DNA from: Escherichia coli
GTDB taxonomy: Bacteria > Pseudomonadota > Gammaproteobacteria > Enterobacterales > Enterobacteriaceae
Length of the DNA stretch: 64,000 nt
Assembly (NCBI RefSeq): GCF_003334305.1
Contig: NZ_QOWS01000004.1
Strand: one strand, 5' to 3'
Both the position numbers and the translations under genes were made by a program. Positions within the stretch are counted from its first letter, which is position 1. Every line of letters begins with the position of its first letter. The notes under the pieces are model-generated. The model did not search any database, was not told the origin of the DNA, and saw nothing but the letters and a program-made list of their open reading frames with translations. Shown one piece after another: positions 42,964-52,755 of this stretch.

Positions 42964-42969
42964 TAAAAA

Positions 42970-42996
42970 TTCCCGATAGTCTTTTGCTATCGGGAA
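42970..42996 (+). terminator. Hairpin downstream of mutS (ttcccgatag-tcttttg-ctatcgggaa)
   Basis: 10-bp perfect inverted repeat starting 7 nt after the mutS stop; weak T-run. Confidence 0.5.
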
Positions 42997-43068
42997 TATT
43001 AACGACAACTGACGAATCAAATAAAAATACCCTGTATAATAGGAAAGCTTATTTTACAGGGTAAAACC

Positions 43069-43725: not shown

Positions 43726-43726
43726 T

Positions 43727-43752
43727 CTCATGCTTCTTCTGTGAAGCATGAG
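43727..43752. terminator. Hairpin between convergent pphB and ygbI (ctcatgcttc-ttctgt-gaagcatgag)
   Basis: 10-bp perfect inverted repeat directly after the pphB stop. Confidence 0.5.
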
Positions 43753-43775
43753 TAACCAAATGTTATTGCAGGCCA

Positions 43776-44573
43776 TTATTCATTTTTCGCAACCAGCAAA
43801 GAGAGATCCTGCTTCGCCAGCGCGCGACTGGCACTCTCCGGCAAACCGTCGTCTGTGATAATCTGATCAAACTCGCTTAATGGTAACGCCAGCCATGTCG
43901 CCACCTGACCATATTTCGTCGCATCACAGACCAAAACTCGCTGGCGGCTGGCACTGGCAATCGCCCGTTTCACCGTGACTTTATCTTCCGCTGGCGTAGA
44001 AATCCCCCGCACACTCCATGACGATGCAGAAATAAAAGCCTGATCAATCATCAGGCTGCGCAGCATGGTCGCAGCGGCTTCCCCGACACAGGAACGGTTT
44101 TCCCGACACACTGCACCGCCAGTGTGAATAATTGTGCAATTACTGTTGTCGAGCAAGTAGTTCGCAATAACGAAATCGTTTGTGACCACAGTCAGTGACT
44201 CCATGTGAATCAGATGCTGTGCTATCGCTAACGTGGTCGTTCCCGCATCCAGATAGATACAACTTCCCGGCTGAACAAGACTTGCCGCCAGCTTGCCAAT
44301 AGCCGCTTTTTGCGTCATTGCCAGCGCAGTTTTTACCTGATGAGAAGGTTCATGCGCCACGCGTCCCGGAGACTGGACGCCTCCGGACACCAGCACAACG
44401 GCTCCCTGCTGCTCCAGTTTTTGTAAATCCCGACGAATGGTCATATGTGACACATTCATTCTGTCCGTTAGTTCAGCAATACTGACAATGCCTTTTTCAG
44501 CTACCATCTCAAGGATGATTTGGCGACGCTCTACGGGTATCAACTTTTGCTCCTTCCTTTGTCCTGCTGACAT
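43776..44573 (-). CDS. ygbI: DeoR-family transcriptional regulator
   Basis: ORF track 265 aa; HTH IVSIAELTDRMNVSHMTIRRDLQKLE; the true start may be a few codons internal. Confidence 0.88.
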   Translation of the reverse strand: MSAGQRKEQKLIPVERRQIILEMVAEKGIVSIAELTDRMNVSHMTIRRDLQKLEQQGAVVLVSGGVQSPGRVAHEPSHQVKTALAMTQKAAIGKLAASLVQPGSCIYLDAGTTTLAIAQHLIHMESLTVVTNDFVIANYLLDNSNCTIIHTGGAVCRENRSCVGEAAATMLRSLMIDQAFISASSWSVRGISTPAEDKVTVKRAIASASRQRVLVCDATKYGQVATWLALPLSEFDQIITDDGLPESASRALAKQDLSLLVAKNE

Positions 44574-48410: not shown

Positions 48411-49775
48411 ATGTCCACAATTACATTGTTATGCATTGCGTTAGCTGGCGTAATCATGCTGTTGCTGCTGGTCATCAAGGCAAAGGTACAACCATTCGTT
48501 GCTCTGCTCCTCGTCAGCCTGTTAGTCGCACTTGCGGCGGGTATACCGGCGGGCGAAGTGGGTAAAGTGATGATCGCCGGGATGGGCGGTGTGCTTGGTT
48601 CCGTCACTATTATTATTGGTCTGGGCGCTATGCTGGGGCGTATGATCGAACACTCTGGTGGTGCAGAGTCACTGGCTAATTATTTCAGTCGCAAGTTAGG
48701 TGACAAACGAACTATCGCTGCGCTGACTCTGGCAGCGTTCTTCCTCGGTATTCCCGTCTTCTTTGATGTCGGCTTTATTATTCTTGCGCCAATCATTTAC
48801 GGTTTTGCCAAGGTTGCCAAAATATCGCCACTCAAATTTGGCCTGCCTGTCGCTGGAATCATGCTAACTGTTCATGTGGCGGTACCGCCGCATCCAGGCC
48901 CTGTCGCCGCAGCGGGGTTACTCCACGCAGACATCGGCTGGCTAACCATCATCGGTATTGCGATTTCTATTCCCGTAGGGATTGTTGGCTACTTTGCAGC
49001 GAAAATAATCAATACGCGCCAATATGCGATGTCGGTGGAAGTACTGGAACAGATGCAACTGGCTCCGGCCAGTGAGGAAGGCGCAACAAAATTAAGCGAT
49101 AAAATAAATCCACCGGGCGTCGCGCTGGTCACCTCGCTAATTGTTATTCCTATCGCGATTATCATGGCGGGTACGGTTTCCGCAACACTGATGCCGCCTT
49201 CGCATCCCCTGCTTGGTACGCTACAGCTGATCGGCTCACCAATGGTAGCTCTAATGATTGCGCTGGTGCTGGCATTCTGGTTATTGGCTTTACGTCGCGG
49301 CTGGAGCTTACAACACACCAGCGACATTATGGGCTCAGCCCTTCCCACTGCGGCGGTAGTGATTTTGGTTACTGGTGCTGGAGGGGTATTTGGCAAAGTG
49401 CTGGTGGAATCGGGCGTCGGCAAAGCCCTTGCCAATATGCTACAAATGATTGACCTGCCTCTGTTACCAGCCGCATTTATTATTTCACTGGCTCTGCGTG
49501 CATCGCAGGGGTCAGCAACCGTAGCAATCCTGACAACCGGCGGGTTACTCTCAGAAGCGGTGATGGGATTGAATCCGATTCAGTGCGTATTGGTGACGCT
49601 GGCAGCCTGCTTTGGTGGGCTTGGCGCGTCACATATTAATGACTCAGGGTTCTGGATTGTGACCAAATATCTGGGGTTGTCGGTAGCAGACGGTCTGAAA
49701 ACCTGGACAGTGTTAACGACCATTCTCGGTTTTACCGGATTCTTAATTACCTGGTGCGTATGGGCGGTAATTTGA
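48411..49775 (+). CDS. ygbN: GntP-family acid-sugar permease
   Basis: ORF track 454 aa, polytopic membrane protein. Confidence 0.9.
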   Translation: MSTITLLCIALAGVIMLLLLVIKAKVQPFVALLLVSLLVALAAGIPAGEVGKVMIAGMGGVLGSVTIIIGLGAMLGRMIEHSGGAESLANYFSRKLGDKRTIAALTLAAFFLGIPVFFDVGFIILAPIIYGFAKVAKISPLKFGLPVAGIMLTVHVAVPPHPGPVAAAGLLHADIGWLTIIGIAISIPVGIVGYFAAKIINTRQYAMSVEVLEQMQLAPASEEGATKLSDKINPPGVALVTSLIVIPIAIIMAGTVSATLMPPSHPLLGTLQLIGSPMVALMIALVLAFWLLALRRGWSLQHTSDIMGSALPTAAVVILVTGAGGVFGKVLVESGVGKALANMLQMIDLPLLPAAFIISLALRASQGSATVAILTTGGLLSEAVMGLNPIQCVLVTLAACFGGLGASHINDSGFWIVTKYLGLSVADGLKTWTVLTTILGFTGFLITWCVWAVI

Positions 49776-49780
49776 CCTTA

Positions 49781-49816
49781 ATAAAAAGGTCCGATGGGCA
49801 TCGGACCTTTTATTTA
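49781..49816. terminator. Bidirectional rho-independent terminator shared by convergent ygbN and ecdD
   Basis: ataaaaa-ggtccgatg-ggc-catcggacc-tttttattt: stem flanked by an A-run and a T-run. Confidence 0.8.
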
Positions 49817-50050
49817 ACGCTTACCTTCCACCAGCAGCGGCGGGATGCTCGGCACCATTGGCGCGTCATCAATATCTTTCTGCGTCATGCGGAACGCTTC
49901 GGGATAATGTTCGCGGCTGGTACGGCGCAGCGGTTCGGTATCGCGCCAGGTATAAAGGCAATGCTGGCACTGATATACCGTCCAGACATCTTTCACCGGC
50001 GATTTCGCCATCACTTCAATCTGTTCATCGGCACAACGTGGACAAATCAT
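49814..50050 (-). CDS. ecdD: Small zinc-ribbon subunit of UbiD-family phenolic acid decarboxylase (BsdD/EcdD-like)
   Basis: ORF track 78 aa MICPRCADEQIEVMAKSPVKDVWTVYQCQHCLYTW (CxxC...CxxC); last gene of the UbiX-UbiD-small subunit operon. Confidence 0.75.
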   Translation of the reverse strand: MICPRCADEQIEVMAKSPVKDVWTVYQCQHCLYTWRDTEPLRRTSREHYPEAFRMTQKDIDDAPMVPSIPPLLVEGKR

Positions 50051-50060
50051 CTTCTTCTCC

Positions 50061-51488
50061 TTATTTACGTGCAGCCAGCATAGCGGTCAGTTTTTCAGCC
50101 CAGGCTTTGGTTTCCGGTAAATCCACCACCGGTTGGCTGTAGTGACCACGGTTGTCCGGGGCGACAGGCGTAGTGGCGTCGATAATCAGCTTGTCGGTGA
50201 TCCCCGCAGGGCTTGAGCCTGGATCGAGTTCCAGCACGGACATATTCGGCAACTGCACCAAATCCCCTGCCGGGTTCACTTTCGAGGAGAGCGCCCACAT
50301 CACCTGCGGCAGGTTGAACGGGTCAACGTCTTCATCGACCATAATCACCATCTTCACGTAGCCCAGACCATGCGGCGTGGTCATTGCGCGCAGGCCCACC
50401 GCGCGGGCAAAGCCGCCGTAGCGTTTTTTGGTGGAGATAATCGCCAGCAGGCCATGGGTGTACATGGCGTTTACCGCCTGCACTTCAGGGAACTCGGCTT
50501 TCAGCTGCTGATACAGCGGCACGCAGGTGGCTGGCCCCATCAGGTAGTCGATTTCGGTCCACGGCATACCGAGGTACAGCGATTCGAAAATCGGCCTGGT
50601 GCGGTAAGAGACTTTATCGATGCGCACCACGGTCATGTTACGCCCGCCGGAGTAGTGCCCGGTAAACTCACCGAACGGCCCTTCGATTTCGCGTTTACGG
50701 CTTTCGATAACCCCTTCGAGGATCACTTCTGAACCCCACGGCACATCAAAACCGGTCAGCGGGGCGGTGGCGATCGGGTACGGGCTTTCACGCAGCGCGC
50801 CTGCCATTTCATACTCAGACTGATCGTATTTCAGCGGCGTGGCCCCCATCAGCGTGATGATCGGATCGTTACCGAGCGTGATCGCAATCGGCAGATCTTC
50901 ACCGCGCTCTTCTGCTTTATGCAGATGCAGGGCGATATCGTGCATCGGCACCGGTTGCAGGCCGAGCTTACGCTTGCCCTTCACTTCCATGCGGTAGATG
51001 CCGACGTTCTGCTTGCCGAAGTTATCTGGGTCGAGCGGATCGCGGGAAACCACGCAGGCTTTGTCGAGATAGAAACCGCCATCGCCATCGTTTAAACGAA
51101 ACAGCGGCAGGATATCGAACAGGTTAATCTCTTCGCCATCGACGGTGTTCTGCGCCCAGGCTGGATTGGCGCGGCGCTCCGGGGCAATCGGGAAGTTATC
51201 CCAGCGGCGGATAAACTCATCAATCTGCTTTTTGACCGGGGTGTTTGGTGGCAGGCCAAGGGAAATCGCGTGGTTCTGCCAGGAACCGATGGTATTCATC
51301 GTCACGCGGGCATCGGTAAAGCCGCGAATATTATCAAACCACAGCGCGGGCGCGCCGTCGCCGATACGCCCGGTGGCGTTAGCTGCTGCTGCCAGATCCG
51401 GCTCAGCGTTCACCTCTTCGCTGATTTTCAGTAACTGGCCGTGGTCATCAAGCGCCTGTAAAAAGCTGCGTAAATCATCAAATGCCAT
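50061..51488 (-). CDS. ecdC: UbiD-family (prenyl-FMN-dependent) aromatic acid decarboxylase
   Basis: ORF track 475 aa MAFDDLRSFLQALDDHGQLLKISEEVNAEPDL. Confidence 0.85.
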   Translation of the reverse strand: MAFDDLRSFLQALDDHGQLLKISEEVNAEPDLAAAANATGRIGDGAPALWFDNIRGFTDARVTMNTIGSWQNHAISLGLPPNTPVKKQIDEFIRRWDNFPIAPERRANPAWAQNTVDGEEINLFDILPLFRLNDGDGGFYLDKACVVSRDPLDPDNFGKQNVGIYRMEVKGKRKLGLQPVPMHDIALHLHKAEERGEDLPIAITLGNDPIITLMGATPLKYDQSEYEMAGALRESPYPIATAPLTGFDVPWGSEVILEGVIESRKREIEGPFGEFTGHYSGGRNMTVVRIDKVSYRTRPIFESLYLGMPWTEIDYLMGPATCVPLYQQLKAEFPEVQAVNAMYTHGLLAIISTKKRYGGFARAVGLRAMTTPHGLGYVKMVIMVDEDVDPFNLPQVMWALSSKVNPAGDLVQLPNMSVLELDPGSSPAGITDKLIIDATTPVAPDNRGHYSQPVVDLPETKAWAEKLTAMLAARK

Positions 51489-52081
51489 TATTCATTCTCC
51501 TGAGAAAAATTCCGGGCCTGCGGCAATCCTTGCCAGCGCCTGGCATGGGGATGTTCGAGGCCAAATTTATCCAGCACGCGGGCTACCACATGGTGGACAA
51601 TGTCATCTACCGTTTCGGGATGGTTATAAAAGGCAGGCATCGGCGGCACCATCGCCACGCCCATGCGTGAAAGTGCGAGCATATTTTCGAGATGGATGGT
51701 GCTAAGCGGCATTTCACGCGGCACCAGCACCAGTTTGCGGCCTTCTTTGAGCACGACGTCCGCCGCGCGCCCTACCAGGCCATCGGCGTAACCAGCGCGG
51801 ATACCGGCGAGCGTTTTCATACTGCACGGAATAACGATCATGCCGTCGGTACGAAAAGAACCGGATGAGATGATCGCCGCCTGATCCGCCGGGTTATGGC
51901 TGAAGTCTGCGAGGGCAGCAACATCGCGAGCGCTGTAAGGCGTTTCCAGTTCAATGGTGGTTTTCGCCCACTTCGACATCACCAGATGAGTCTCGACATT
52001 CGGCATCTCCCGCAGCGCTTGCAGTAATGCCACACCAAGAGGCGCACCGGTAGCCCCTGTCATCCCGACGATCAGTTTCAT
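51488..52081 (-). CDS. ecdB: UbiX/Pad1-family flavin prenyltransferase
   Basis: ORF track 197 aa MKLIVGMTGATGAPLGVALLQAL; stop overlaps the ecdC start. Confidence 0.85.
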   Translation of the reverse strand: MKLIVGMTGATGAPLGVALLQALREMPNVETHLVMSKWAKTTIELETPYSARDVAALADFSHNPADQAAIISSGSFRTDGMIVIPCSMKTLAGIRAGYADGLVGRAADVVLKEGRKLVLVPREMPLSTIHLENMLALSRMGVAMVPPMPAFYNHPETVDDIVHHVVARVLDKFGLEHPHARRWQGLPQARNFSQENE

Positions 52082-52227
52082 TGCTTATCCTCTTAATTGT
52101 TCGTATACGAACATTATTATTAACATACTCCTTCATTTCCACAGCGGCAAGGATTGAAAAGTAACAACATCTTCTTCGTCACTAAAAAACCGCTATGATA
52201 GCGACAGAGAATTAGCCCGGAGTTTAC

Positions 52228-52635
52228 ATGGCGTTACGAAATAAAGCGTTCCATCAGTTACGACAGCTTTTTCAGCAGCACACGGCTCGCTGGCAGCACG
52301 AGTTACCTGACCTGACCAAACCACAGTACGCGGTGATGCGCGCCATTGCTGATAAACCTGGTATCGAACAGGTGGCACTGATAGAAGCAGCTGTCAGCAC
52401 CAAAGCAACGTTAGCAGAAATGTTGGCAAGAATGGAAAATCGTGGCTTAGTCAGACGTGAACATGACCCCGCTGATAAGCGGCGACGCTTTGTCTGGTTG
52501 ACTGCCGAAGGCGAAAAGATACTTGCTGCGGCGATACCCATTGGTGACAGCGTGGATGAGGAATTTTTGGGGCGTTTGAGTGGAGAAGAGCAGGAGCTGT
52601 TTATGCAGCTGGTGCGCAAGATGATGAACGCATAG
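52228..52635 (+). CDS. hosA: MarR/SlyA-family transcriptional regulator
   Basis: ORF track 135 aa; winged-helix region QYAVMRAIADKPGIEQVALIEAAVSTKATLAEMLARMENRGLVRR; divergent from ecdBCD. Confidence 0.8.
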   Translation: MALRNKAFHQLRQLFQQHTARWQHELPDLTKPQYAVMRAIADKPGIEQVALIEAAVSTKATLAEMLARMENRGLVRREHDPADKRRRFVWLTAEGEKILAAAIPIGDSVDEEFLGRLSGEEQELFMQLVRKMMNA

Positions 52636-52646
52636 GGGGCAAATTT

Positions 52647-52680
52647 CCGGATGCGACGCTATCGCGTCTTATCCAGACTA
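52647..52680. repeat. REP-like element downstream of hosA
   Basis: ccggatgcgacgctatcgcgtcttatccagacta resembles the REP consensus. Confidence 0.6.
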
Positions 52681-52704
52681 CAAATACACCGACTCACCAA
52701 CCGA

Positions 52705-52737
52705 AAGAAAAAAGGCCAGCCTCGCTTGAGACTGGCC
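52705..52737 (-). terminator. Rho-independent terminator of rpoS
   Basis: Minus strand: ggccagtctcaagcgaggctggcc followed by uuuuuucuu, about 20 nt after the rpoS stop. Confidence 0.8.
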
Positions 52738-52755
52738 TTTCTGACAGATGCTTAC

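Follow-up and report, generated by a model that had tools for sequence, protein, structure and literature searches.

The convergent genes ygbN and ecdD meet, in a 64,000-nucleotide stretch of Escherichia coli DNA (the window, as the whole of the analysed sequence is called below), across a short spacer whose G+C-rich hairpin probably serves as a canonical intrinsic, Rho-independent terminator of the ygbN transcription unit, usable from both sides. An identical hairpin and T-run are present in K-12, which lacks the ecd genes, and the hairpin therefore belongs to the ygbN side of the junction. The breakpoint of the ecd segment falls exactly at the outer edge of the T-run, implying that ecdD, lacking its own terminator in this arrangement, borrows that of ygbN. 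A first-pass annotation had described the hairpin as forming the left junction of an ecd island. The hairpin does lie at the boundary of the ecd segment, with the breakpoint between 49814 and 49815 at the T-run edge, but its presence in a genome without ecd genes contradicts the idea that it forms that boundary. The features involved are listed below in window coordinates.

48411-49775, plus strand: ygbN, GntP-family transporter, last gene of the ygbJ-N operon; stop codon TGA at 49773-49775 (open reading frame list; RefSeq annotation of identical sequence in other genomes)
49783-49787, strand not applicable: A-run AAAAA, paired with the T-run in the extended stem and template of the U-tract for minus-strand (ecdD-direction) transcripts (sequence and fold)
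49788-49807, strand not applicable: G+C-rich hairpin core, with arms 49788-49795 and 49800-49807 (8 bp) and loop 49796-49799
49808-49815, strand not applicable: T-run TTTTATTT, serving as U-tract for plus-strand (ygbN-direction) transcripts and ending in two bases of the ecdD stop codon
49814-50050, minus strand: ecdD, subunit D of non-oxidative hydroxyarylic acid decarboxylase, last gene of ecdBCD; stop codon TAA at 49816-49814, tta on the plus strand (open reading frame list; annotation)
49814/49815, strand not applicable: left breakpoint of the ecd segment; 49814 is the last base identical to K-12, and the match is lost at 49815, where the T-run has its edge, in the ecdD stop codon (probe match, sequence, alignment)
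49815-52709, strand not applicable: variable segment of 2,895 bp, with ecdD, ecdC and ecdB (minus strand) and a MarR-family regulator (plus strand, 52228-52635); K-12 has the 8 bp GTGCACAG instead
52709-52742, minus strand: rpoS intrinsic terminator, right bound of the variable segment (built-in terminator scan); common to K-12 from AAAAGGCC onward

Sequence and Fold of the Hairpin

The spacer between the two convergent stop codons measures 38 bp (49776-49813) and contains a perfect 9-nt inverted repeat, GGTCCGATG (49788-49796) and CATCGGACC (49799-49807), with 2 nt between the arms. The 9-bp stem, the flanking A-run and T-run, the 38-bp spacer, and the overlap of the T-run with the ecdD stop codon that the first-pass annotation had reported are all present at the positions given above. 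Its stem length is exact for the DNA repeat of 9 + 9 nt and differs from that of the RNA, in which a 2-nt loop is unable to close; the RNA stem therefore comprises 8 bp with a 4-nt loop (GGGC on the plus strand, GCCC on the minus), or 12 bp when lengthened by A:U pairs (49784-49795 with 49800-49811). The 8-bp core contains five G/C pairs and folds with -11.8 kcal/mol on either strand. Folding of the whole 38-nt spacer yields -17.1 kcal/mol (z = -5.3) on the plus strand and -16.6 kcal/mol (z = -4.9) on the minus strand, values equalled by none of 200 shuffles of each. The upstream A-run mirrors the downstream T-run, such that a stem followed by a U-tract is offered to polymerase from either side: the tract directly after the stem is UUUUAUUU on the plus strand and UUUUUAUU on the minus strand, with seven U in eight positions in each. 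RNA polymerase arriving from either direction would therefore meet the stem and then the U-tract. Both stop codons are close by, the extended stem and the core being 2 and 6 nt, respectively, from that of ecdD and 8 and 12 nt from that of ygbN.

The hairpin combines the recognised attributes of Rho-independent terminators, namely a G+C-rich stem within about 5-14 bp and a loop within 3-8 nt, a U-rich tract 3' of the stem, and a position past the last stop codon, here of both operons. It also has the makeup of a bidirectional terminator, a single hairpin between convergent genes, flanked by an A-run and a T-run on opposite sides. Such an arrangement is rare by chance. Both strands of the 64-kb window were scanned for perfect stems (7 bp or longer, four or more G/C pairs) that enclose a loop of 3-8 nt and are followed by six or more T within 8 nt, yielding four sites compared with a mean of 0.23 in 200 dinucleotide-preserving shuffles; the ygbN hairpin is the only one of the four with a mirror-image A-run, and a site of that kind appeared in 0 of the 200 shuffles. 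A built-in promoter and terminator scan of the window does not include the ygbN hairpin among its terminators, presumably because the stem is extended through A:T pairs, leaving too few T in the remaining tail. On a d'Aubenton-Carafa-type score, the hairpin reaches +14.5 on the plus strand and +18.7 on the minus strand. It is weaker than the rpoS terminator both by this measure (about 15-19 vs +50) and in the energy of its core (-11.8 vs -18.6 kcal/mol).

The 20-nt core has no second copy in the window, the sequence maps to a median of one place per E. coli genome, and an Rfam scan of 44-56 kb returned no family at the hairpin. Assignment as a repeated extragenic palindrome (REP) was rejected on both counts. 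A reading as an operator or as a member of a repeat family was likewise rejected, the half-site being not enriched and having no copy in either promoter region.

Breakpoints and Comparison with K-12

The limits of the variable segment were placed at base level by searching 5,426 complete E. coli genomes with a 440-nt junction probe (49576-50015). Of these, 1,602 contain the entire ygbN-ecdD junction; K-12-type and BL21 genomes, which are without ecd, match probe positions 1-239 only, corresponding to 49576-49814. Reciprocally, in genomes with the arrangement of the window (pattern IV, below), the match to the K-12 junction stops after the last T of TTTATT. K-12 carries the identical ygbN stop codon, hairpin, and TTTTATT, in the order ygbN TGA, CCTTAATAAAAAGGTCCGATGGGCATCGGACCTTTTATT, GTGCACAG, and then AAAAGGCCAGCC, which begins the rpoS terminator. 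On the far side of the segment, homology with K-12 resumes at 52710, in the A-run of the rpoS terminator. The comparison with the ygbN-rpoS junction of K-12 that the first-pass annotation had proposed upholds a boundary beside the hairpin and shows that the hairpin occurs in the absence of an ecd junction.

RNA 3' Ends in K-12 and Probable Termination from Either Side

From the hairpin into ygbN, the K-12 sequence is identical to that of the window. In MG1655 grown in LB, TRS analysis of RNAtag-seq data placed a 3' terminus peak on the minus strand (2866465-2866474), 4-13 nt beyond the hairpin stem (PMC10687069, Supplementary Data 3 and 4). The signal of this peak is 0.90, equivalent to approximately 10% local read-through, with adjusted p values of 8e-7, 0, and 3e-10 in the three libraries (PMC10687069). 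The fold drawn by the authors for the terminus corresponds exactly to the ygbN hairpin, at -16.6 kcal/mol, and the terminus is listed as the second of the primary ends of rpoS, with a 3' UTR of 95 nt (PMC10687069). The 3' end of the K-12 rpoS terminator proper lies at 2866510 and 2866506 across that work and a Term-seq study (PMC7815308), and the table of the latter contains the rpoS end at 2866510 alone, without the minus-strand end at the ygbN hairpin. No plus-strand 3' end is assigned to ygbN in the supplements of these two K-12 studies (PMC10687069, PMC7815308); the gene was probably barely expressed in the media of both. The TERMITe supplement mentions neither ygbN nor rpoS. Of the two strands, then, the minus strand alone has a mapped 3' end at the hairpin, in K-12. 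RNAtag-seq is unable to separate termination from processing, and exonuclease trimming back to a hairpin can also yield a 3' end; the mapped K-12 end presumably reflects termination rather than such trimming.

The K-12 end gives direct support to the minus-strand, ecdD-direction reading, though in another gene context, and transcripts of ecdD presumably end at the hairpin in the window strain as well. Termination of ygbN transcripts is predicted from sequence. In the window, the hairpin would be the only structure available to end both the ygbJ-N (plus strand) and the ecdBCD (minus strand) transcripts. In K-12, without ecd, it lies 8 bp from the rpoS terminator and may act as a minus-strand back-up stop for rpoS read-through. 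The ygbN hairpin resembles the rpoS terminator (52709-52742), which is of the canonical intrinsic type, in its G+C-rich 8-bp stem, its 4-nt loop, its seven U in eight, its position past the last stop codon of an operon, and a K-12 3' end a few nucleotides after the stem. It differs from canonical intrinsic terminators such as that of rpoS in its weaker core and in its unusual proximity to both stop codons (2-12 nt). Proximity of this order is known to matter: in E. coli, tR2 placed a few bp past a stop codon is almost fully repressed by the translating ribosome and attains full strength only beyond approximately 27-30 nt from the stop codon (PMC4824070). With both stop codons close to the stem, such ribosome repression could plausibly let transcription continue into the opposing gene when closely followed by translation. 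The first-pass description of a symmetric, factor-independent terminator serving both transcripts is accordingly supported in part, by the hallmarks on both strands and by the K-12 minus-strand end; efficient service of both transcripts is less certain, the stop codons being 2-12 nt from the stem.

Alternative Readings of the Hairpin

One competing model regards the hairpin as a collision-type bidirectional terminator, which mainly pauses polymerase and depends for release on the head-on and trailing collisions of convergent transcription units. The shared use of a single hairpin by the convergent ygbN and ecdD genes fits this model, which has been published for many convergent E. coli gene pairs (bioRxiv 10.1101/2022.10.23.513370), and a modest hairpin energy with both stop codons nearby suggests weak termination by either unit on its own. 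The bidirectional class defined by SEnd-seq, exemplified by ynaJ-uspE, indeed resembles the ygbN hairpin in having one hairpin common to convergent units and mirror-image A- and T-runs (bioRxiv 10.1101/2022.10.23.513370). Members of that class are, however, described as unlike intrinsic terminators, without intrinsic features and dependent on collision, whereas the ygbN hairpin has full intrinsic features with textbook U-tracts on both strands. Moreover, the K-12 minus-strand 3' end forms without evident opposing transcription, ygbN appearing silent, which makes a requirement for an opposing polymerase unlikely, and neither the ygb nor the ecd operon is known as highly expressed. Collision is thus an unlikely explanation of the site as a whole, although it could contribute there. 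A mainly protective or processing role for the hairpin, in which Rho or entry into the opposing gene stops transcription at a point beyond the stem and exonucleases then trim the RNA back to a stabilising hairpin, is improbable. Terminator 3' ends usually lie 7-9 nt after the stem, and the K-12 minus-strand peak, spread over 4-13 nt with its dominant position distal, falls slightly beyond that range; RNAtag-seq, being blind to the distinction between termination and processing, is compatible with such trimming. Against this stand the U-tracts directly after the stem on both strands, needless for a hairpin that only protects, and the loss of approximately 90% of the local signal at the site.

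It is very improbable that the hairpin is instead a recombination joint or protein-binding site, such as a cruciform-prone site, an attachment site, or an operator, that made or marks the ecd junction. Across all four arrangements of the region, breakpoints fall at or beside terminator hairpins, and small deletions near this hairpin fall at short direct repeats, both of which would be in keeping with a joint. The hairpin is nevertheless unchanged in K-12, where no junction exists; no direct repeats flank the segment beyond AAAAAGG, part of both terminators; the segment holds no integrase or tRNA; the half-site is neither enriched nor present in the two promoter regions; and the hairpin sequence has one copy per genome. 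As a primary role, this reading is largely refuted.

Terminators in the Mosaic of the mutS-rpoS Region

The mutS-rpoS polymorphic region has previously been divided into four arrangements of the interval between ygbN (o454) and nlpD, termed patterns I-IV (PMC4209514). The gene order of the window, with ygbN (o454), kpdD/C/B (= ecdD/C/B), a slyA-like MarR regulator, and rpoS, is the same as that of pattern IV (PMC4209514). The EPEC strain E2348/69 is reported to have ygbN and ecdD arranged in this way (PMC4209514). Patterns in that work were typed by PCR amplicon size, and the word "junction" is absent from its text (PMC4209514); the present analysis placed the breakpoints at base level (49814|49815 and 52709|52710) and attributed the hairpin to the ygbN side. 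Counts from junction probes for the four patterns, which together account for 5,395 of the 5,426 complete genomes, are as follows.

Pattern I: pphB beside ecdD, O157 type; 806 genomes
Pattern II: K-12 type; 1,945 genomes
Pattern III: B2 type, other genes after ygbN; 1,042 genomes
Pattern IV: arrangement of the window; 1,602 genomes

In these and related genomes, the ecdD stop codon is fused to different hairpins: that of ygbN in the window, a GCCGGGTA hairpin in O157-type E. coli and Pluralibacter, and the rpoS terminator in Salmonella. The pattern I hairpin, GCCGGGTA...TACCCGGC, lies a few nucleotides from the ecdD stop codon (L002, 3470-3512). Its counterpart in Pluralibacter, TGCCGGGCA..TGCCCGGCA, is shared with mutS (L093, 3532-3586) and, judged by sequence, looks homologous to it, with a T.A to C.G compensatory change. 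In Salmonella, the ecd block is inverted and ecdD uses the rpoS terminator itself (AAAAAAAAGGCCAGTCgacaGACTGGCCTTTTTTT; L090, 6238-6282). Every arrangement examined places the ecdD stop codon within 0-8 nt of a hairpin common to the convergent neighbour. The ecdD-side hairpins of Salmonella and Pluralibacter have clear A/T runs on both sides, and the U-tract of pattern I is poor in the ecdD direction. Pattern III diverges from 49764, in the last codons of ygbN; the ygbN hairpin is lost there, and another 12-bp hairpin with a T-run lies further downstream.

Apart from one just inside ygbN, all mapped breakpoints fall at the outer edge of the A- or T-run of a terminator hairpin. It is tempting to regard terminator hairpins as preferred joints of the mutS-rpoS cassette mosaic, created by illegitimate recombination targeted to hairpins or AT-tracts, but this idea is decidedly speculative and unlikely to be correct; alternatively, the same distribution could arise by the mere survival of those rearrangements that keep each cassette insulated. 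A further hairpin, of 10 bp (CTCATGCTTC..GAAGCATGAG), lies in the convergent pphB/ygbI spacer (43726-43775) and marks the left breakpoint of pattern IV relative to pattern I; the two patterns share sequence up to AAATAAAGTA after pphB and then diverge.

Standing of the ecd Segment as an Island

The term island, as applied to ecd by the first-pass annotation, is doubtful. EcdD homologues, which carry Pfam PF26358, are 85-88% identical in Salmonella, Klebsiella, and Pluralibacter, and the MarR-ecdBCD block lies between mutS and rpoS in all three genera, filling the whole interval in Pluralibacter. The G+C content of the segment is unremarkable (55%, compared with 53% for the window). Its gene content is limited to ecdBCD and the MarR gene, with neither an integrase nor a tRNA, and its two ends have no common direct repeat longer than AAAAAGG, itself part of both terminators. 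The junction of an integrative element was considered and rejected, since flanking repeats beyond AAAAAGG, an integrase, a tRNA, and atypical composition are all lacking. The ecd block is probably ancestral at the mutS-rpoS locus rather than a recent insertion, and loss of ecd from K-12-type genomes is the more likely course of events. A ygb cassette with its own terminator may have come to lie beside the old ecd block, displacing an older hairpin on the ecdD side, with K-12-type genomes then losing ecd.

Conservation and Natural Variants

Of the 5,426 complete E. coli genomes, 3,516 contain a 70-nt sequence comprising the hairpin together with the ygbN 3' end, and in 3,245 of these it is identical. 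The stem is invariant in every strain sampled, and the sampled variants differ only in the length of the A-run (4-5) or the T-run (4-5 T). The flanking DNA is also approximately 99% identical, so this conservation carries little weight. Outside E. coli, a search of genome contigs for ygbN orthologues retrieved a close one from E. albertii only, with 98% identity, on a contig that ends 4 nt after the stop codon, followed by orthologues of approximately 80% identity from Serratia, Edwardsiella, and others; most of the distant orthologues examined have unrelated strong hairpins downstream. Orthologous hairpins consequently offered no usable case of covariation, given the E. albertii contig end and the unrelated hairpin sequences of the ~80% relatives. 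A protein search with YgbN returned near-identical E. coli entries only. Salmonella contains a ygb-like cluster (L095, 10719-13162) with an extra epimerase gene and a 498-aa GntP permease, a paralogue 33% identical to YgbN; at this low identity, the two ygb clusters are not simple orthologues at their permease ends.

Two natural strains lack the hairpin altogether. In strain a7 (L008, 4165-4275), it has been lost by a 30-bp deletion between GACCTT repeats. In strain N2512 (L098, 2500-2580), an 82-bp deletion between TGAC repeats has removed both the ygbN hairpin and the rpoS terminator, bringing the ygbN and rpoS stop codons to within 11 bp of each other. The absence of the hairpin from such rare strains indicates that it is dispensable.

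Significance and Other Hairpins of the Region

Taken as a terminator, the ygbN hairpin is a routine two-way element of an already known kind in a long-studied polymorphic region, and its importance extends little beyond careful annotation. Such annotation gives the exact limits of the ecd segment (49815-52709), records the dependence of ecdD on the ygbN hairpin in the pattern IV arrangement, and corrects the use of "island" for what is probably an ancestral block, lost from K-12. Both stop codons are very near the stem, and read-through from either operon would therefore make antisense RNA over the other, which could couple expression of the ygb (threonate/erythronate) and ecd (phenolic acid) functions.

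Several other hairpins were observed in the window. A REP-like palindrome, CCGGATGCGACGCTATCGCGTCTTATCCAG, occupies 52612-52678 just after the MarR/hosA stop codon and has a weak Rfam match to naRNA4 (33.7 bits, compared with a gathering score of 59.5); REP-like copies are found at the same rpoS-proximal place in pattern I and III strains and not in K-12. A perfect 11-bp hairpin at 42969-42997, between the plus-strand genes mutS and pphB, has a T-run on the minus strand only, and the K-12 mutS 3' end has been mapped to a hairpin downstream of this one, at approximately 43040-43065. Finally, on the minus strand at 44037-44057, a perfect 8-bp hairpin followed by TTTATTTC is found inside the ygbI coding sequence, an intragenic, terminator-like structure on the sense strand.
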